DNA from: an uncultured Fibrobacterota bacterium
GTDB lineage: Bacteria; Fibrobacterota; Chitinivibrionia; Chitinivibrionales; FEN-1185
DNA length: 64,000 nucleotides
Direction: 5' to 3'
NCBI GenBank assembly: GCA_963753345.1
Contig: CAVWBU010000024.1
Span: forward strand, 160,001 to 224,000
The translations under genes and the position numbers were made by a program. Within the stretch, counting starts at the first letter, position 1; each line of letters starts with the position of its first letter. Positions 37,631 through 47,111 of the stretch are shown piece by piece. Under the pieces are notes generated by a model. That model was not told the origin of the DNA. It saw only the letters and a program-made list of their open reading frames with translations, and made no database searches.

Positions 37631-37664
37631 TGATTGGTGTTTTTCCTGTCCTTATTAAAAATAG

Positions 37665-40664
37665 TTACCGTGCATGGAATTCATGAAATTTTCGATATAC
37701 CTCTTTGAGAAGATTTTCGCCTACCAGGGTCTTGAAATCCTTGTCATTCATGTACTTCGCGGTGATCTCCTCATTGCTTTCCATGCGGTCGATGAACAGC
37801 CCTTCAAGCGCCTTTACAAAAACATATCCGAAATTTTCCATGGTATTTGCCAAGGCAGCCTGCCGTAAGGCAGGATCAGCCAAGGCATCCTCCTTGATCG
37901 AATCGAAAAAGAGCTGGTCGGAAGGCTTGAACTCGGTCCCAAACCGTTCATTCAGAATGTCGATAAGTTTTGAAAGCTCGATTTTCGGTTCACGCACGAT
38001 ATGAGTGCCAACCTCGGACGGTCCGCTCACCGGATACGGTTTCCCGCTTTCAAGAACAATTGAACCCTCGGAAATCTTTTGGAGCCGGTAATATTTGAGC
38101 GACACTTCATCGTCGAACGAATAGGATATTCCCGAGGAACGTCTTGGTAATTTGACAAGAAGGAAGCGAACAAATGCGTAGAACTTTTCGAGGTCTACAT
38201 CTTGAAACGGAATGATCTGCGAAAGGAAGGAATAGAGATTACGAAAAGCAGACAGAACCTTTCGGAAATTCTCCCGTTCCTCTTCTTCGAGTGCCTTAAA
38301 CCGGCCAACCGCCGGATCGATGGCCGCATTGATGCGGGCGTGGTCGGTGGGCGTCTGGTTCGCCGTGGGCTTAAAGAACGCCTCTGCAAAGGCCTCCACC
38401 TCGGCCTTGTAGTACACCTGCGCCGAATCAAGACGGGCTTGGAGTTCATAAAGATGGCGTGCTTCGACCCGCTCCCCCACTTCAGTTTGTTCATAGTAGG
38501 GCTGAAATGCCTCTACTATTTCTTCCCTATCATTTACAAAATCGAGCACAAAGGTTTCTTCCTTGCCCGGATGAGTGCGATTCAAGCGAGAAAGGGTCTG
38601 AACAGCTTGAATGCCGGAAAGCCGTTTGTCCACGTACATGGTATGAAGGAGCGGCTGGTCAAAGCCGGTTTGGTACTTCTCCGCGACAAGAAGCACCTGG
38701 TACTCGTCGGTTCCGAATTTCTCAGGAAGTTCTTTTTCTTTGATACTCTTATTCATGGCTGGTTCCGTATATGACGCATCCGCGTTTTCATGGTCAATGA
38801 CGGTTCCCGAAAATGCGACAAGTGTCTTGATACCGGCATATCCCTTCTCCGCGATATACTTGTCAAAAGCAATCTTGTACCTGACGGCATGAAGGCGTGA
38901 CGAGGTCACGACCATGGCCTTTGCTCTTCCGCCAATGCGCTGTTTGACGAAGGTTCTGAAGTGCTCGACCATCACCTCTGTCTTCTGGGCGATATTGTGG
39001 GGATGCAGCGACATAAACCTCGCCAGCGCTTTGGCGGCCTTTTTCTTGTCCACCTGCGGATCGTCGGCTATGGATTTGATAAGGCGGTAATAGGTAGTGT
39101 ATGTGACATAGTTCTCCAGGACATCGAGTATGAATTTTTCCTGGATAGCCTGACGCATGCTGTAAAGATGAAAAGGCTCCGGTTTACCGTCTTTTCCGAC
39201 AATGCCGAACATTTCCAGCGTCTTGTATTTCGGGGTGGCCGTAAAGGCGAAGAAACTGATATTCGGCTGGCGGCCGCGGCGGGCAAGGGTCTTGAGAATT
39301 TCCTCTTCGAAATCGGGCAGGCTGCGTTCCTCCGCCTGCTCTGCCGCGGCATCCCCGGCTTCGCGGCCTGCAAGAACGCCCCGCATTTCAGCAGCGCCTT
39401 CCCCGCTCTGCGAGCTGTGCGCTTCGTCGATAATGACCGCATATTTGCGCGACGGCAGGTCGCCGATTTTGTCCGTAACAAAGGGGAATTTCTGTAATGT
39501 GGTAATAACGATTGGAACGGCAGATGAAAGCGCCGCGGCAAGTTGGTTCGAGCTTTCGTCAATTTTCTGCACCACACCCTGCTTATGTTCAAATTGGTAA
39601 ACGGTGTTCTGCAATTGCTGGTCGAGCACCAGGCGATCCGTAATGACAATGACGGAATCAAAAACCTTTTCGTCCTTTGCACTATAGAGGCTCGAAAGCC
39701 GGTGCGCCAACCACGCAATGGAATTGCTTTTCCCGCTTCCTGCCGAATGTTGCACCAGATAATTATTGCCAACGCCGTTTGTGCGTGCGTGCGCTATCAT
39801 CTTCCGCACGGAATCGAGTTGATGGTAACGGGGGAAAATCATGGTCTCTTTCTTGAGTTTCTGCCCGCCGAATATTTTTTCCTCGATTTGCAAATGCAGG
39901 AAGCGTGCAAATATGTCAAGAAAACTGTCCCGCTGCCATACCTCTTCCCACAAATACGCCGTCTTGTACCCGTTTGGATTATCCGGATTGCCTGCCGCCG
40001 TGCCGTTGCCCTTGTTGAAAGGCAGGAAATAGGTGTTCTGCCCTGCAAGCTTCGTAGTCATGTACACTTCATCCGGATCGACGGCAAAATGAACAAGGCT
40101 ACGTTTGCGAAATTGGAAAAAGAGGTCTTTAGGATCGCGGTCGTTTTTATACTGGTGAATGGCATTTCGCCAGGTCTGACCGGTTAGTGGGTTCTTGAGT
40201 TCCGCCGATACTACAGGAATGCCGTTGATGTTGAGTACAAGGTCAATTTCGTTCTTATGGTTTTGGCTGTAACGAAGCTGCCGCGTTACGGTGAGGCGGT
40301 TGGAGTCGTAGAGGCGTTTGATTTCCGGGTTCATTCCGCTTGCGGGCGCAAAATAAGCAACCCTGAAGAGCTTCCCGAAGCACTTGAATCCGTGGCGGAG
40401 AACTTTTAGACACCCCTCACTTTCCGAGTCAAGCGCCTTGCAAAGGTCGTCGAGAAGCGTGGCCTCGGCTTTGCCTTTCTGAAGACCTTCGAGATAATCC
40501 CAGGTGTCCGGCTGAGTTTTTTTGACAAACGGGATAAGCACCGTAGGATCGAGACAGCGTGCCGGGTCGAACGATACCGGATCGCCCCTGGAGAAGTCCC
40601 CTGTGGTGAGAAGGCAATGCTCGATTGCCGTTTCAAAGGCTTTTTCTGAATGGTCGGTGGGCAT
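37665..40664 (-). CDS. hsdR: type I restriction endonuclease subunit R
   Basis: DLVLNINGIP..AELKN nuclease motif; HSAGSGKS; IIDEAHSSQ; FTATPK; QTGFDQP; QTLSRLNR. Confidence 0.96.
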   Translation of the reverse strand: MPTDHSEKAFETAIEHCLLTTGDFSRGDPVSFDPARCLDPTVLIPFVKKTQPDTWDYLEGLQKGKAEATLLDDLCKALDSESEGCLKVLRHGFKCFGKLFRVAYFAPASGMNPEIKRLYDSNRLTVTRQLRYSQNHKNEIDLVLNINGIPVVSAELKNPLTGQTWRNAIHQYKNDRDPKDLFFQFRKRSLVHFAVDPDEVYMTTKLAGQNTYFLPFNKGNGTAAGNPDNPNGYKTAYLWEEVWQRDSFLDIFARFLHLQIEEKIFGGQKLKKETMIFPRYHQLDSVRKMIAHARTNGVGNNYLVQHSAGSGKSNSIAWLAHRLSSLYSAKDEKVFDSVIVITDRLVLDQQLQNTVYQFEHKQGVVQKIDESSNQLAAALSSAVPIVITTLQKFPFVTDKIGDLPSRKYAVIIDEAHSSQSGEGAAEMRGVLAGREAGDAAAEQAEERSLPDFEEEILKTLARRGRQPNISFFAFTATPKYKTLEMFGIVGKDGKPEPFHLYSMRQAIQEKFILDVLENYVTYTTYYRLIKSIADDPQVDKKKAAKALARFMSLHPHNIAQKTEVMVEHFRTFVKQRIGGRAKAMVVTSSRLHAVRYKIAFDKYIAEKGYAGIKTLVAFSGTVIDHENADASYTEPAMNKSIKEKELPEKFGTDEYQVLLVAEKYQTGFDQPLLHTMYVDKRLSGIQAVQTLSRLNRTHPGKEETFVLDFVNDREEIVEAFQPYYEQTEVGERVEARHLYELQARLDSAQVYYKAEVEAFAEAFFKPTANQTPTDHARINAAIDPAVGRFKALEEEERENFRKVLSAFRNLYSFLSQIIPFQDVDLEKFYAFVRFLLVKLPRRSSGISYSFDDEVSLKYYRLQKISEGSIVLESGKPYPVSGPSEVGTHIVREPKIELSKLIDILNERFGTEFKPSDQLFFDSIKEDALADPALRQAALANTMENFGYVFVKALEGLFIDRMESNEEITAKYMNDKDFKTLVGENLLKEVYRKFHEFHAR

Positions 40665-40955
40665 TTCTTATCTTTCGAAATTGTCTATTGCTATTACTTC
40701 CGTATTGCTACTACGCTTCTTTCTGAATGCGGAAGTAGCAAATCGTATCTCGCATTGATTCAATCCATTATATGATTTTACGGCTGCGTTTACTGCTAAT
40801 TCAATCTCTTTTTTATTGCTATTGTTCTTCCATTGTTGACTTATGTTGTCTTTTGTGTTATCTTATTATTGCAGGCAAGCGCAGGATTGTAGAGGTCGCC
40901 GGACAACGGCGGCAGCCCGTTTCGGGTGGGATCCTCGAACCTGGGGCCTGTTAAG

Positions 40956-40989
40956 AAGCGAACTTCTCAATATGAGAGTTCGCTTTTTT
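40956..40989. terminator. terminator-like hairpin at the 3' end of the ATPase gene
   Basis: AAGCGAACT(T)CTCA-ATA-TGAGAGTTCGCTT, with a T-run on the plus strand. Confidence 0.5.
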
Positions 40990-40994
40990 CATTG

Positions 40995-42560
40995 CTATGC
41001 CGAACGCCATGTGGAAATGAATTCCCTGATTTTATTTGCCAATTCATAAACTTCACCACGTTTGGCAGAGGTTTCTTTTTTTGCGAGAATACGCATTATT
41101 TGCGGAGGGGTCTTTGCTAATTCAGTGGCAAATGAAAAAAATCTGTTTTTAGCTATGGCTTGAGGCTTATCGGCAGCATTGGCGTATAATGCGGTCAGGC
41201 GGCCCAATTTTTCGAGAATTATTTCTCCGGTCATGTTGAAAAGCTCGGTATAGTCTTCGGGATGCTGGCTAATTGTCTTCCATGCCCATTCTTCCGGTAC
41301 GTCGTTACCAGGGAGAAAAACAATCTGAGCAATCTGGCCCATTTGGGTAGCTTTCGCTTCCAACTCCGGGCCGATTTCCCTTCCGTCACCGTCAAGTACA
41401 AAGACCATATCATTTAATTTACGAAATTTTCCCAACGTATCAAGATGATTGGAAAATTGGTCTTTTCCGGTATCCCTGCCTACGTCAATATCATTCTGTA
41501 GAAAATCGAGTTCGGGACCCAAATAATCAAGAATACCCCTGATAAAATTTTCCGACTCCTCATCTTCACAAAGGAAAGATAACGTGTTTTGTGATCGACC
41601 GTATAAGGCTTTCTGGATTAAATCGCGATATGCATCTCGTCGAACAACGTTCCTGTTTGACCGCTCCAGAAAAAGCCGCCCTTCGGGTGGCACGGTTTCA
41701 AGAATCGTCGGGCTATGGCTGGTTACCACGATCTGCAGCTTGTTCCGAAGAGCGAGACGTTGTAATTCCAGCATGAGCATTTGCTGTAAATAAGGATGAA
41801 GCCCGGTCTCTACTTCGTCGATCAGCACCAGGGCTTCTGACATTTTCGATACTGCCATAGAGAGTCTCAGGATCGAACGTTCTCCGGCAGACATGTTGAA
41901 TTCCGAATATGAGGGAATGGTTCCGTCGGATTCGGCGCTACGCTGGGCGAACAACAAGTCGCGAACGCCAGAAGAAATTTTATTCAGCGCGGTGTAACGA
42001 TACGGTAAAATGGCATGAGCGAAAGCTATATCCGAAGCGTCAATCACGATGGAGTCATATTGTTTATATGCCAATTGGAGGACACTCCTGACTTCAGAAG
42101 GATTACTTAAATTCGCCAGTGTGCGAAGGTATACTTGTCGTTCAGGTTGCATGGCCTTGGGACGTCCAAAAAAACTCTTGCTCCACTTTTCCTTATTGCG
42201 CTTCCAACGCATCTGCATCGTCGCGCCCAGGTGGATATAGGTAAAAGTCAATTCGGTTTCAAACCGCGTGTCACGAAGATGTTCCTCCCCGCTCGAAGGA
42301 GAAAAAGCCGGAAAAAGACGCGCCGGCGTTAAATCGTAGCGACCAACATTATAAGCGGTAGCCAAGGCAAACAAAACCGTCGACTTACCGCACCCGTTCG
42401 CGCCGGCCAGAACCGAAACAGGGTATGAAAGGGGTACATTCAACTCGGCAATGCCGCGCAGATTCCTGATTTCGATTTTGTCGAGATTTTCCGCGCGGTT
42501 CGGTTTCTGGCCGCGAAGCTGATCCCAGATTTGTTCAAGATTTTTTTTGATCGGATTCAT
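40995..42560 (-). CDS. ABC-type (AAA_21/OLD-like) ATPase fused to TOPRIM-like domain
   Basis: Walker A GANGCGKS, signature MSAGE, Walker B LIDEVETGLHP, H-loop TSHS; C-terminal FLCED, VLDGD, FLPG..PE. Confidence 0.88.
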   Translation of the reverse strand: MNPIKKNLEQIWDQLRGQKPNRAENLDKIEIRNLRGIAELNVPLSYPVSVLAGANGCGKSTVLFALATAYNVGRYDLTPARLFPAFSPSSGEEHLRDTRFETELTFTYIHLGATMQMRWKRNKEKWSKSFFGRPKAMQPERQVYLRTLANLSNPSEVRSVLQLAYKQYDSIVIDASDIAFAHAILPYRYTALNKISSGVRDLLFAQRSAESDGTIPSYSEFNMSAGERSILRLSMAVSKMSEALVLIDEVETGLHPYLQQMLMLELQRLALRNKLQIVVTSHSPTILETVPPEGRLFLERSNRNVVRRDAYRDLIQKALYGRSQNTLSFLCEDEESENFIRGILDYLGPELDFLQNDIDVGRDTGKDQFSNHLDTLGKFRKLNDMVFVLDGDGREIGPELEAKATQMGQIAQIVFLPGNDVPEEWAWKTISQHPEDYTELFNMTGEIILEKLGRLTALYANAADKPQAIAKNRFFSFATELAKTPPQIMRILAKKETSAKRGEVYELANKIREFISTWRSA

Positions 42561-42618
42561 TGAATATCCTCTATTCTTTGTTACAAACTAAAATAACTAT
42601 TCCACAATCGAAATGGCA

Positions 42619-43965
42619 CTATGTAGCACTATTAGGAACTTTCACTTCGTTGCGGACGTCGATTTTGCCGGTGACGGCGGAGGAGATGAGGGAGGTGCGA
42701 TATTTTTGAAGAAGCACAACGCTCTGCGCTACTTTGCCAAAAACCCGATCAACCGAATCAAGCGCCTTTTCAACGGCAGAAACGATTTGAGCCTGTTCGT
42801 CCGTTGGCGGAATCGCTAGAAAAAAATTGCCCAAGTCTTCCATGGACAAATTAGGCTGAGCAGATTGAACGGCGTCTATCCAAAGCCGTTTTTGCATGAA
42901 ATCCGATTGTAAGCAAAAATGCAAGAAAGAGGGATTAGCGCTTGGCTTGGGTCTTATAAAAGCAACGGCTTGATTTGTATTGGCGGGCAGAAACTTCTTT
43001 TCGAGAATAGCAGATTTCCCAATTGTGGCACCTGCTATAACAAAAAGAATATCGGATTCCCGGAGGCATGATCTGAATATGAGCTTATTTGTTTCATCAT
43101 CTATGAAGAATTGTGGATTGGGAGAGACCGTATTGTTTATTATGTTTTCAGCCTTAATAAACCGAACAGTCCCTTCAAGTTCAATTTCTTTGCCAATAGT
43201 AGAAGGAGTTGTACCCTTAGAAATACGATCAGTTTGGAATTTAAGTCGGGATATTTTCCAGTGCTCCGGCACCTTCCCCAACCATTCCACCCCCGAATCC
43301 TTCATCTTCACCTTCGGGTCAAGCCCTTGGGTCACCGCTTGACTTATGAGCGCCACACGTTTCTTCTGCAAGAGCTCGAGTTGTTTGCGCTTCTTTTCTA
43401 TGAGGGTATCTATCCGCTCGGTCTCGCGGTCGAGAAAGGCGGCGATGGCACGTTGTTCGGGGAGAGGGGGAACAGGTATTGGAATATCTCCAACGATATC
43501 TGTGTTAAGGTTAAGTTGGGTGCCAAATTTACCAAGACCGCCATATGGTTTACCACTTGAGAAGATGTAATATAGGAAGTCACGGTTTTGTGAGAGATAT
43601 GGGAAGTAAACAAAGCCGTCGTGAATACAGCACTTTATTTTGGTGATAATAGGCTTGCCTACTGAGCCTGCAATGCTCAAAAAAAGGTCGCCTGGTTGCA
43701 TAGGAACGCTGAGTGATTTGCCCAGAATGGAAAGTCGTTGGGTAGTGGACTTAAGGTAGCGATCACTGGCTGTAACATCTGCAATACGAACCCAAGAATA
43801 TTCACCATCAGCATCGAAATATTTGGGGTCATCTATTGGACGAGGGGACGCACCGCGTTTGACAAGTGATAGCCGTTTGGTTTTCATGACTTGCCAATGA
43901 GATGGAACACGGCCAATCCATTGACTACCCGACTCTTTGTATTGCAGGTGGAATTTGTATCTCAT
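42619..43965 (-). CDS. hsdS: type I RM specificity subunit
   Basis: Two TRDs between repeats YKESGSQWIGRVPSHW / MKDSGVEWLGKVPEHW; PPLPEQ, PPTDEQ, SAVTGKIDV. Confidence 0.95.
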   Translation of the reverse strand: MRYKFHLQYKESGSQWIGRVPSHWQVMKTKRLSLVKRGASPRPIDDPKYFDADGEYSWVRIADVTASDRYLKSTTQRLSILGKSLSVPMQPGDLFLSIAGSVGKPIITKIKCCIHDGFVYFPYLSQNRDFLYYIFSSGKPYGGLGKFGTQLNLNTDIVGDIPIPVPPLPEQRAIAAFLDRETERIDTLIEKKRKQLELLQKKRVALISQAVTQGLDPKVKMKDSGVEWLGKVPEHWKISRLKFQTDRISKGTTPSTIGKEIELEGTVRFIKAENIINNTVSPNPQFFIDDETNKLIFRSCLRESDILFVIAGATIGKSAILEKKFLPANTNQAVAFIRPKPSANPSFLHFCLQSDFMQKRLWIDAVQSAQPNLSMEDLGNFFLAIPPTDEQAQIVSAVEKALDSVDRVFGKVAQSVVLLQKYRTSLISSAVTGKIDVRNEVKVPNSAT

Positions 43966-45977
43966 TCTCCCCCCGCCAGCATCTCCGCAATCTCCCTCTC
44001 AATCCCCTTCAACTCCGCCTCAATCTTCTCCAGCGGTTCCGGCGGCTCATACTTATAGAAATATCTATTGAAATTTATTTCATATCCTATCTTCGTCTTT
44101 TCCTCATCAATCCAGGCATCCGGCACATGCGGCAGCACTTCCCGCTTCATGTATTCGTCAACCTTTTCCTTGAGCGGCACGTTTTCGTAATCCCGTAGTT
44201 CTGAGTCGGGTTCCGGCTTTCCGTCGCTGTCCAGGCATATTTCCGCGGTTGGGTCGCGTTCCGAAAGTGCATCGAGGATTCCATTAAAAAGACCGGAAGA
44301 TACGGGCACATCAGCATCCTTGAGGGCACGCCGCAGAATTGAAATAAACTTCTCCCTGTTTTTGCAGAGTGGCTGCTTCTTTAACGGTTCCAAAACGGAA
44401 AGTACCTGTTTCTGCTGTTCGCGGCCTTCCTTTTCTTCCTGATCTTTGGCTTTTATGTCCTTTTTCTTTTTGCTCTCCGCAAGGCCAACAAATGATGACA
44501 AGACTTTTACCCGTTCAATTCTCTCATCCGAGACAATGAAATTGAGCTTGAGCGGCCTTTCAACGGTGATCCGCCTGTATCCGAAATCTTCATTGTCAAA
44601 TACTTTCACCTTCTCCCCGTCCTTGTAATCCCCATAGAGCCGAACTATTTCTTCAATGTGGGGCTGTGAAATTTCGTTGCGTTTGTTGCCCAGGCTCTTC
44701 CGCATCTTTTGGAAAGCTCCCGTGGCGTCGATCATCTGTATTTTTCCACGCCGCTGTCTGGCTTTGCGGTTGGTGACAATCCAAAGATACGTGCTGATGC
44801 CGGTATTGTAGAAAAGCTGGTCGGGCAAGGCGACAATGGCTTCCAGCCAGTCGTTTTCTATGATCCATTTCCTGATGTTACTCTCGCCGGAATCCGCGCT
44901 GCCGGTAAAAAGCGGCGAACCATTGAAAACAATGGCCAGTCGCGTTCCACCCTCGGCCATTGGTTTCATCTTGCTTATCATGTGCTGAAGGAAAAGAAAC
45001 GAACCATCGTTGATCCGCGGCAGGCCTGCGCCGAAGCGGCCGTCTGTGCCGCGTTCGTTGTATTCCTTGTCAATGAAATCTTTTTCCGGTTTCCATTCGA
45101 CGCCAAAGGGCGGATTTGCGAGCATGTAATCGTATTTCTTACCGGTAAAGTAATCCTCGGTGAAACTGTCCCCGAAACGGATATTCTCGATATTCTGTCC
45201 TTTTATCATCATGTCGGAGCCGCACACGGCAAAGGCTTGGTCGTTGTAGTCCTGTCCGAACACCTCCAGCGTCGCATCCGGATTGAGCTCACGAAGATAA
45301 TCTTCGGAAACCGACAGCATGCCGCCTGTGCCGCACGCAGGGTCAAAAAGCGTTCTTATTGTGCCGGGTTTCCGCAGCAGATCATCATCCGGATCGAAAA
45401 TCAGGTCTACCATGAGGCGGATAACTTCCCTCGGCGTGAAATGGTCTCCGGCCTCTTCGTTGGAGGCTTCGTTAAACCGCCTGATGAGTTCCTCGAATAT
45501 GTATCCCATTTCGATGTTGGAAACGACATCAGGGTGGAGGTCAATTTCACAGAATTTCGAAACGACCAGAAAGAGACGGTTGTGCTTGTCGAGGTTTGCA
45601 ATATGTTCTTCGAACTTGAAATGTTCGATTATTTCTCTCGCATGTGGGGAAAAATTCTTGATGTAGTGAGTAAGGTTTGCTGCAATATTTTCCGGGTCGC
45701 CTTTGAGTTTTTCGAACGTAAACCTGCTCGTGTTGTAAAATGACTGCCCGGAAGCCCGTAGTAGGATTCGTTCCTTGCCGATTTCGTTGAGCTTGCCGCC
45801 TTTCAGTTCCTTGGCCTTGGCAAGGACTTTGTCCTTGGTTGATTCCAGGACGCAATCCAGGCGCCGGAGCACCGTGAGCGGCAACATCACATCTTTATAT
45901 TGGTTGGGACGGTACGGGCCCCGGATCAGGTCGGCAACGCTCCAGATGAAACCCACTTTATCGCTGAAATTGGTCAT
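43962..45977 (-). CDS. hsdM: type I RM N6-adenine methyltransferase subunit
   Basis: FIWSVAD, GDHFTPREV, DPACGTGG, NPPF, FYNTGI. Confidence 0.96.
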   Translation of the reverse strand: MTNFSDKVGFIWSVADLIRGPYRPNQYKDVMLPLTVLRRLDCVLESTKDKVLAKAKELKGGKLNEIGKERILLRASGQSFYNTSRFTFEKLKGDPENIAANLTHYIKNFSPHAREIIEHFKFEEHIANLDKHNRLFLVVSKFCEIDLHPDVVSNIEMGYIFEELIRRFNEASNEEAGDHFTPREVIRLMVDLIFDPDDDLLRKPGTIRTLFDPACGTGGMLSVSEDYLRELNPDATLEVFGQDYNDQAFAVCGSDMMIKGQNIENIRFGDSFTEDYFTGKKYDYMLANPPFGVEWKPEKDFIDKEYNERGTDGRFGAGLPRINDGSFLFLQHMISKMKPMAEGGTRLAIVFNGSPLFTGSADSGESNIRKWIIENDWLEAIVALPDQLFYNTGISTYLWIVTNRKARQRRGKIQMIDATGAFQKMRKSLGNKRNEISQPHIEEIVRLYGDYKDGEKVKVFDNEDFGYRRITVERPLKLNFIVSDERIERVKVLSSFVGLAESKKKKDIKAKDQEEKEGREQQKQVLSVLEPLKKQPLCKNREKFISILRRALKDADVPVSSGLFNGILDALSERDPTAEICLDSDGKPEPDSELRDYENVPLKEKVDEYMKREVLPHVPDAWIDEEKTKIGYEINFNRYFYKYEPPEPLEKIEAELKGIEREIAEMLAGGE

Positions 45978-46120
45978 GGGTAACAGTCCTCTTATGCAAA
46001 GAGTCAATCGCGGTATCAACAGGCAGTGAGGTAATATAATGCCGAAAGAAGTTTACAATCCAGCAATTTCTTAGTTTCAAAGCAATCGTTACCTCTGCGC
46101 GATTTCCTTTCCAACATGGC

Positions 46121-47111
46121 TCAACCGCATCGCCCCATAACCGCCATGCACGCATCAAACACCTGCGAAACCGGAATTGCACTCATGCACGCCTTTCCGC
46201 ACTCGCCGAGAGGAATGGAGGTTGACGGATGGCAATGGAAGCACGCTTCCTGCGGTGCGGAAACAACGGTGACGTTGTCGCCCCCGGGCCGCCACACGGC
46301 CGGATCGGACGGCCCAAACAGCACGACGCTGGGCGCGCCCGCGGCCGCGGCACAGATGGGAAATTCCGGAGTCGTTGCCCACGTAGAAAACGCAGCGGGA
46401 AAAAATATGAACAAGCGCCGGCAGTGAAGCTTCCCGCACAACCCTGTCCTGGGCGCGGGCTGCAACCTTCCGTTCCGCTGGCCCCATGATCCACACGATG
46501 CGGACTTTTCTTTCGGCCAATTGTTCCGCTAAATCAAGATAGCGCTCCAAGGGCCAGTTCTTCCTCGCGCTGCCACTGCCGGGATGCAGTGCGACAAAGG
46601 TTCCGATTCCGTCAAGCAGCCGGTCCGATTCGCTTTTGAATTCTGGATGAGGGGCCAAAGCCGGGAGGTCGCGCGCGGCCCCGGTTCCCATGCCGAAAAG
46701 CGACAAATGGTAATCGCTGACATGAATGCACTGACGCGGAAACGGGTCCTGAAACAGGAGGCGGTGCATTCCGAATTGCCTGAACCGCGCGAGCACCGGG
46801 GAGTCGGGCGCGGTAAAAAGCAGGGCAGACCGGACAGCGGACAATTTGGCCTTTATTGACAAAGGAATTGCCGTCTCGCGTGCGTAAAGCCACGAAAACG
46901 CCGCGCTTTCGACATCCAAGACCTCGTCAAAAAGGCCGCAATGAACGCCCAGGATGCCGTAGGATGGTTTCCCGAGCAGAACTCTTCTGCTTTGAGTGTC
47001 TTGCCTGTTCCATTCCCCCAGCGCAGGAAAGGTGGTGATAAAATCTCCCAGGCCGCCGGTGTGGTAGACAAGAGAGATAGTAGATGATTTTGGTTTGTTG
47101 ATTTGAGGCAT
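46121..47111 (-). pseudogene. glycosyltransferase family 9 (heptosyltransferase-like), +1 frameshift at ~46352 (pseudogene or sequencing error)
   Basis: GGLGD, HPGSG..KNWP, GNDSGISHL in one frame; AAAAGAPSVVLFGPSDP in the next frame. Confidence 0.8.

Follow-up and report, generated by a model that had tools for sequence, protein, structure and literature searches.

HEC-04, a single protein that combines an ABC ATPase with TOPRIM, has been described as a defence that resides within Hma (helicase-methylase-ATPase) systems (Payne, Hughes, Fineran & Jackson, bioRxiv 10.1101/2024.01.29.577857). According to the available part of this preprint, HEC-04 protects E. coli MG1655 deltaRM, the protection is lost with K62A or with E319A/D375A/D377A, and the induction of HEC-04 is toxic (bioRxiv 10.1101/2024.01.29.577857). 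For ibfA of the IncI1 plasmids (R64/pUA1135), a homologue of HEC-04, an interference of the abortive-infection type is reported, and HEC-04 is stated to be active against T4 and T5 and inactive against T7 (PMC12111858). Here, these proteins are compared with a protein of 521 amino acids, in the following called X, which is encoded in a type I restriction-modification (RM) operon of an uncultured Fibrobacterota bacterium. The window, i.e. the whole stretch of DNA that was analysed, comprises 64,000 nucleotides (assembly GCA_963753345.1, contig CAVWBU010000024.1, positions 160,001 to 224,000), and all coordinates for this genome refer to it. Judged from the sequence comparisons, X is a member of the already described HEC-04/IbfA anti-phage family, which is mostly found outside of RM operons. 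The initial annotation had considered the locus to be a candidate for a new defence system; this view is refuted by the PADLOC match to HEC-04 and by the homology to IbfA.

In the PADLOC check, the top match of X was HEC-04 (PDLC04149) with an E-value of 2.9e-36 and 123.1 bits. The match spans residues 19-439 of X, and thereby both domains, as well as positions 20-413 of the 494 positions of the profile, with a coverage of 80% for the profile and of 81% for X. The runner-up was the ATPase-Toprim of retron type I-B (1.2e-25), followed by AriA, PtuA, GajA and Old, which matched via the ATPase part. The same best match was obtained for all ten X homologues compared (10/10, 121-170 bits), which originate from Hma, type I and other contexts. 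A search of plasmid R64 with a profile of X relatives matched a single gene (E 3.6e-27), a 1557-bp gene for an 'AAA family ATPase' adjoining a ProQ/FinO gene. Since size and neighbour fit the published description of ibfA (PMC12111858, as far as available), the matched gene was taken as ibfA. The hhalign comparison of the X-relative profile with this IbfA resulted in 99.15% (E 3.6e-19) over 386 columns with an identity of 26%, and the Walker A motif, the signature, the Walker B motif, the TOPRIM glutamate, the DGD motif and the LP..PE motif all line up. Among phages, tblastn of X gave two weak matches, both in one Burkholderia phage.

Compared to HEC-04, X likewise comprises a single chain of about 500 amino acids with an ABC ATPase, a C-terminal OLD-like TOPRIM domain and the catalytic K, E and DxD residues. 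The residues K62, E319, D375 and D377 of the tested HEC-04 have their counterparts in the invariant K59, E332, D390 and D392 of X, and Hma systems with embedded relatives of X occur as well. X itself differs in being located in a type I RM operon and not in an Hma system, and in its divergence (123 bits). The comparison with IbfA leads to a similar picture: both proteins are homologous across the ATPase and TOPRIM parts and almost equal in length (518 vs 521 amino acids), whereas IbfA is plasmid-borne beside a ProQ/FinO gene, lies outside of an RM operon and is beyond the reach of tblastn at E 1e-5.

The two halves of X are located as follows.

41661..42560, minus strand: residues 1-300 of X, ABC ATPase head with Walker A (K59), MSAGE signature, Walker B (D248/E249) and H-loop (H282); AAA_21 1.1e-21, AAA_15 4.1e-20
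40995..41660, minus strand: residues 301-521 of X, read as OLD-type TOPRIM (E332, D390-G-D392, E423) followed by a C-terminal helical domain; based on the HEC-04 profile match to residue 439, the fold and the motif alignment with IbfA

Weaker Pfam matches in the ATPase half were SMC_N and ABC_tran. Every ATPase motif and acidic motif quoted for X in the initial annotation is present in the translation, namely GANGCGKS at residues 53-60, MSAGE at 223-227, LIDEVETGLHP at 246-256 and TSHS at 280-283 as well as FLCED at 329-333, VLDGD at 388-392 and LPGNDVPE at 416-423 in the C-terminal half. In the alignment of 36 relatives of X, the residues K59, D248, E249, H282, E332, D333, D390, D392 and E423 are invariant. 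For full-length X, AlphaFold gave a model with a pLDDT of 87.7, which in Foldseek came closest to PtuA, to the OLD nuclease of Thermus (6p74) and to GajA, with E-values of about 1e-10 to 6e-12. Modelled alone, the C-terminal 221 residues reached a pLDDT of 90.3 and showed four parallel strands alternating with helices and then a helical bundle. The top rows of Foldseek for this model were the C-terminal parts of two OLD proteins, one from Xanthomonas (6njv) and one from Burkholderia (6nk8), with E-values of 4.7e-3 to 2.9e-2 and TM values of 0.45-0.52. VIA-align, which was run with the same model against 48,161 chains, gave PH0156 (2p62) with a Z of 10.3 and 178 aligned residues, the C-terminal region of Bp OLD 6nk8 with a Z of 9.9 and 173/204 aligned residues, Ts OLD with a Z of 8.1, the small Toprim protein 2i5r with a Z of 7.5 and AriB with a Z of 7.0 and 180 aligned residues. 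A sequence search of the PDB with X gave matches of the ATPase part alone (PtuA, AriA, OLD). From the profiles, the modelled fold and the E...DxD motif together, the C-terminal half of X is read as an OLD-type TOPRIM domain. The earlier description of X as a single-chain ABC ATPase-TOPRIM fusion of the defence type is thus borne out by profiles, fold and motifs, and its C-terminal TOPRIM domain held when checked by structure prediction.

Among other known systems, the OLD nucleases (P2 Old; class 1 Ts OLD 6p74; class 2 Bp/Xcc OLD 6nk8/6njv) share with X the domain order ABC ATPase, TOPRIM and helical region, and they provide the best structural matches for the C-terminal half. Differences comprise shorter ATPase inserts and the sequence models, since no Pfam OLD or TOPRIM model matched X and the PADLOC model Old (4e-15) matched through the ATPase part only. 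X is therefore OLD-like in fold yet not classed as OLD by sequence models. PARIS (AriA + AriB) and Gabija (GajA + GajB) also pair an ABC ATPase with a TOPRIM nuclease, and the PADLOC models of AriA and GajA match the ATPase part of X, but these systems consist of two genes, while X is one chain. Membership in PARIS was rejected, as the best stretch of the AriAB model covered only residues 26-69 of X (E 4.4e-17) and no DUF4435 was detected in X. The same holds true for Gabija, because the island that carries X comprises four genes without a GajB-like helicase, HsdR being the sole helicase-like protein, and for retron type I-B, where the profile match (1.2e-25) is opposed by the lack of both a reverse transcriptase gene and an Rfam retron RNA in the island. 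That neither a reverse transcriptase nor a GajB-like helicase lies in the window had been noted before; the statement stands for the island, to which the check was limited, with its four genes and ten flanking housekeeping open reading frames (ORFs). PrrC of EcoprrI, finally, is likewise an effector with an ABC ATPase that occupies a slot in a type I operon, but it carries an anticodon nuclease where X has a TOPRIM domain. According to the preprint, PrrC resides almost exclusively within type I RM systems (bioRxiv 10.1101/2024.01.29.577857), while hsd genes were found at just 7/80 loci of the X family. Based on the TOPRIM domain and on this count, membership in PrrC was rejected as well.

Relatives of X were scanned with one genome per species in 185,579 species. 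With 455 places found in these genomes, archaea included, the HEC-04/IbfA group reaches far past the enterobacterial plasmids. At an E-value of 0.001 or better, at least 1953 relatives were obtained (8000 candidates scored), which are distributed over many phyla and also occur in Methanothrix; the nearest one is 61% identical. The context counts were made on the best 80 of the 455 loci, with hsd and Hma contexts called by jackhmmer seeded with the Hsd proteins of the window and with Hma parts, and with hsd genes counted within 8 kb. Of these 80 loci, 7 showed a type I context, 12 an Hma context and 3 an SNF2/PLD helicase only, while 58 showed neither. For the 52 loci with at least 3 kb of flank on both sides, the corresponding numbers were 2, 10, 2 and 38.

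The immediate neighbours led to a comparable result. With 77 neighbours scanned on each side, Pfam gave DUF1156 (6) and N6_Mtase (3) upstream and Methylase_S (3), HSDR_N (2) and DUF499 (2) downstream, and PADLOC gave HmaB (8) and MTase_I (3) upstream and HmaC (3) and Specificity_I (3) downstream. The remaining immediate neighbours were mostly housekeeping genes, and clustering of the five genes on either side in the 80 loci revealed no conserved neighbour of X, the largest cluster comprising 9 loci. Within the seven hsd loci the position of the X homologue varies. It is located between hsdM and hsdS in three of them (L013, L054, L063) and after hsdS or before hsdR in four (L032, L014 and the truncated L070 and L078). 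In a tree of 81 proteins the type I cases are scattered, and X of the window belongs to an 11-row clade (SH-aLRT 97) that contains no other type I case and in which the nearest protein (L005) is 59% identical. The association of X homologues with hsd loci is thus weak and non-specific according to the count (7/80, varying slots). Altogether, the X family behaves like HEC-04, as a gene that stands on its own and is frequently, although not predominantly, located inside methylation-based systems. In annotation, such genes should be labelled HEC-04/IbfA-like rather than new RM guards.

In the window, X (40995-42560, minus strand) is one of four co-oriented minus-strand genes in the ORF listing and the translations. 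The other three and a possible promoter are given below.

43962..45977, minus strand: hsdM, type I methyltransferase subunit (Pfam N6_Mtase 4.3e-58, HsdM_N 2.6e-27; PADLOC MTase_I 3.5e-293)
42619..43965, minus strand: hsdS, specificity subunit with two target-recognition halves (Pfam Methylase_S in two stretches; PADLOC Specificity_I 2.9e-112)
37665..40664, minus strand: hsdR, type I restriction subunit (Pfam HSDR_N, SWI2_SNF2, ResIII and T1R_D3-like; PADLOC REase_I 9.6e-41)
40775..40804, minus strand: promoter-like TTGAAT-18-TAAAAT, located about 110 nt before hsdR and in divergent orientation to the promoter of a small RNA (consensus scan)

The three Hsd subunits are identified unambiguously by Pfam, PADLOC and NCBIfam, the match of hsdR to TIGR00348 of NCBIfam (4.9e-59) being under the cut-off of the model. 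The order hsdM-hsdS-X-hsdR with common orientation, as given in the initial annotation, was confirmed by the ORF calls and by these three databases. For hsdM an alternative TTG start at 46019 would extend the gene to 43962-46019; since the PADLOC match to MTase_I begins at residue 16, the ATG at 45977 is the likelier start. While hsdS and hsdM overlap by 4 nt and X starts 58 nt after hsdS, the gap between X and hsdR amounts to 330 nt. X is most likely co-transcribed with hsdM-hsdS, with hsdR under its own promoter. The promoter-like site upstream of hsdR is weak, because sites found by the consensus scan are as numerous in shuffled sequences.

The whole operon is part of an acquired island.

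37635..46139, no strand assigned: acquired island hsdM-hsdS-X-small RNA-hsdR, 8505 nt, without integrase (GC content, absence in same-genus genomes)

The island has a GC content of 48.2%, compared to 59.8% and 58.1% in the 10-kb flanks. Two genomes of the same genus (G001, G002) lack it; in these, the epimerase gene and the heptosyltransferase gene that border the island lie next to each other, with spacings of about 84 nt and about 200-310 nt. Since the two genes are neighbours in these genomes and the GC content differs, the island arrived as a unit. No direct repeat of at least 8 nt was found at its borders. A comparison with other type I operons shows what is carried in their slots.

L094 (G019:C54, 3907-9970; same order): hsdM, PDC-S02 (PD-DExK protein), hsdS, IetA and IetS (complete Ietas pair), hsdR
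L063 (10001-15794): hsdM, X homologue, hsdS, HEC-01A, HEC-01B, hsdR
L013 (1114-10316): hsdM, X homologue, hsdS, PDC-S15, PtuA and PtuB (Septu), hsdR
L032: hsdM, SoFic, hsdS, X homologue, hsdR
G022 (same order): hsdM, hsdS, hsdR, cargo-free with 12 nt from hsdS to hsdR

In one type I family, the slots thus hold Ietas, Septu, HEC-01, SoFic or an HEC-04-like gene, or they are empty, and X is one such exchangeable cargo, embedded in a type I operon that was acquired horizontally. This makes the locus a clean natural example of gaps in RM operons that serve as swap-in, swap-out slots for self-contained defence genes. Some type I operons hold two or three embedded systems at once (L063, L013). In a further genome of the same genus (L090, G004:C14, 4402-9061), an hsdR comes directly after a related hsdM, and its alignment with the HsdR of the window begins only at residue 237 of the latter. 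No hsdS was detected there, and decay or rearrangement of a type I locus is a possible explanation.

Quite probably, X acts as a stand-alone, ATP-regulated TOPRIM nuclease that is switched by phage and is carried with the RM system but is independent of it. For this reading, the family, the fold, the catalytic residues, the genomic context and the island were determined here, and the phenotype and the effects of mutants are adopted from the relatives. We infer as follows how X would be triggered, which substrate it would cut (DNA or tRNA) and that the outcome would be abortive. The ABC ATPase would function as sensor and switch and would keep the nuclease inactive. A phage cue would alter the binding or hydrolysis of ATP and the oligomeric state of X, after which the TOPRIM site (E332, D390, D392) would cut nucleic acid in a metal-dependent manner. 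Phage replication would be halted at a growth cost, either by abortive infection or as a second-line defence. A physical tie of X to HsdMSR would not be required, and the benefit of the embedding could be joint transfer and co-expression.

A refinement compatible with this independent action would be a sensor similar to PARIS, in which X works on its own but is triggered by anti-restriction proteins such as DNA mimics. It would explain the frequent embedding in methylation-based systems (19/80 loci in Hma or type I). Phage T7 encodes Ocr. For AriA, GajA and OLD, which are related to X by fold and profile, Ocr, Stp or RecBCD inhibitors have been reported as triggers, and this kind of triggering has already been proposed for embedded ABC ATPases (bioRxiv 10.1101/2024.01.29.577857), but HEC-04 is reported to be inactive against T7 (PMC12111858), and no trigger of HEC-04 or IbfA was found in the available parts of bioRxiv 10.1101/2024.01.29.577857 and PMC12111858. 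Furthermore, the embedding is also explained by the 'genomic sink' idea and by linked transfer (bioRxiv 10.1101/2024.01.29.577857). Such a trigger is conceivable for X but rather doubtful.

The initial annotation had favoured a guard comparable to PrrC, where HsdMSR holds X latent and X fires when anti-restriction proteins of a phage disable the complex. X indeed occupies the slot of PrrC in EcoprrI, for which the case of Stp is described, and the idea of a PrrC-style backup has been voiced for embedded ABC ATPases (bioRxiv 10.1101/2024.01.29.577857). X is also co-oriented and probably co-transcribed with hsdM-hsdS, and in the seven loci with hsd genes within 8 kb the genes are all co-oriented, a frequency (7/80) which, judged from the small share of hsd loci in genomes, would lie well above chance. 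In contrast, HEC-04 defends in a strain without RM according to the available text (bioRxiv 10.1101/2024.01.29.577857), 73 of the 80 homologue loci have no hsd gene, and among the well-flanked loci hsd genes occur in only 2/52. The slot of X varies among the hsd loci (hsdM-hsdS gap in three, behind hsdS or in front of hsdR in four), the 11-row clade of X has no other type I case, and in related operons the same slots hold unrelated cargo or nothing. With the activity of HEC-04 in deltaRM, the seven hsd loci out of 80 and the nearest relatives outside of hsd loci, a role of X as guard of the type I complex is unsupported and appears improbable. Scarcely probable at all is a non-defence function in DNA repair or topology or a state as decaying, functionless cargo: other host-beneficial roles are speculated on for IbfA (PMC12111858, available part) and N222 replaces a nearly invariant H in X, but the frame is full length with all invariant catalytic residues kept, and the family has spread by transfer through many phyla and into archaea, where its neighbours vary and include many defence genes.

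Several observations weigh against the reading of X as an independent HEC-04-like defence nuclease. The match to HEC-04 is moderate (123 bits on a profile of 494 positions), and tblastn of X against plasmids gave 21 weak matches, with no close relative and no IncI1 ibfA at E 1e-5. X represents a divergent branch of the HEC-04/IbfA group, for which the defence role would hold by analogy, and it carries N222 where at least 90% of the 36 aligned relatives have H. Regarding the C-terminal half, Foldseek gave nothing at E 0.001 or better, and no Pfam family, including TOPRIM, was found in residues 301-521 even at E 10. Many unrelated Rossmann-like folds reach a Z of 7-9 in VIA-align, aligning only about 100 residues; since generic folds of this kind score in that range, the TOPRIM call rests on aligned length, motifs and profiles jointly. 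As for the contexts, at 28 of the 80 loci one or both flanks are shorter than 3 kb, so that some contexts are incomplete, and the detection of hsd genes was seeded from the window's own proteins and cross-checked on the immediate neighbours only. In addition, Hma and type I systems together account for 19 of the 80 loci, so that a functional link to methylation-based systems is conceivable.

The gap between X and hsdR contains a small RNA of its own.

40870..40957, plus strand: DUF3800-VII small RNA (Rfam RF02967) in tail-to-tail orientation to X; score of 69.1 bits (gathering threshold 36.2), covering model positions 1-90 of 90
40836-40864, plus strand: promoter-like TTGACT-17-TATCTT that ends 6 nt before the small RNA (consensus scan)
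40956..40989, no strand assigned: hairpin with a T-run on the plus strand and, on the minus strand, an A-run before the hairpin, 5 nt from the stop of X (from the sequence)

Folded as minus-strand RNA, the hairpin reaches -18 kcal/mol (z -2.15). It is the probable terminator of the small RNA and perhaps that of the hsdM-hsdS-X transcript; the consensus terminator scan did not list it. RF02967 occurs as a single copy in this genome, and no DUF3800 gene (PF12686) was found in the genome (94% complete). Among 151 sampled genomes of the phylum, the RNA was found in this genome and in G006 only. In G006 it directly adjoins a DUF3800 gene, again in tail-to-tail orientation, and a type I hsdM lies 3.3 kb upstream. 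The RNA regions of both genomes are 86% identical over 165 nt and show two compensatory pair changes. In G006, the region from hsdM to the DUF3800 gene (L099, G006:C122, 2614-5731) also comprises an ORF of 503 amino acids and small ORFs of 145, 155 and 106 amino acids; for the 503-amino-acid ORF, which follows hsdM, a sequence search of the PDB gave no relative.

The RNA as a regular partner of the X family was rejected, as a covariance model of the two copies gave no match in 85 sources including all 80 loci (1.39 Mb with the window). Likewise, Rfam gave no DUF3800-VII RNA in 11 hsd-type loci, and a pattern of the 10-nt core of the RNA matched in L018 only, unconfirmed by Rfam. In the available parts of the literature on DUF3800 and RNA motifs (Weinberg et al. 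2017; Mestre et al. 2020; Adt1 preprint), no function for DUF3800-VII RNAs was found. The likeliest explanation is that a cargo of DUF3800 plus RNA was once located in the slot and that the protein gene was replaced by X, leaving behind the RNA, which perhaps is still active. That the small RNA is active and now works with the HEC-04-like nuclease or with the RM operon, for example as an antitoxin-like or sensor RNA, is very improbable. If true, one structured RNA would serve interchangeable effectors in type I cargo slots, i.e. the RNase H-like DUF3800 in G006 and the ABC-TOPRIM protein here. The orphan copy of RF02967 provides a small, concrete handle on what the enigmatic DUF3800-associated RNAs do. 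Besides this RNA, Rfam gave a weak match to the tp2 small RNA at 40660-40764 on the plus strand, overlapping the start of hsdR (25.3 bits against a gathering threshold of 50, E 0.067), which most likely arose by chance.

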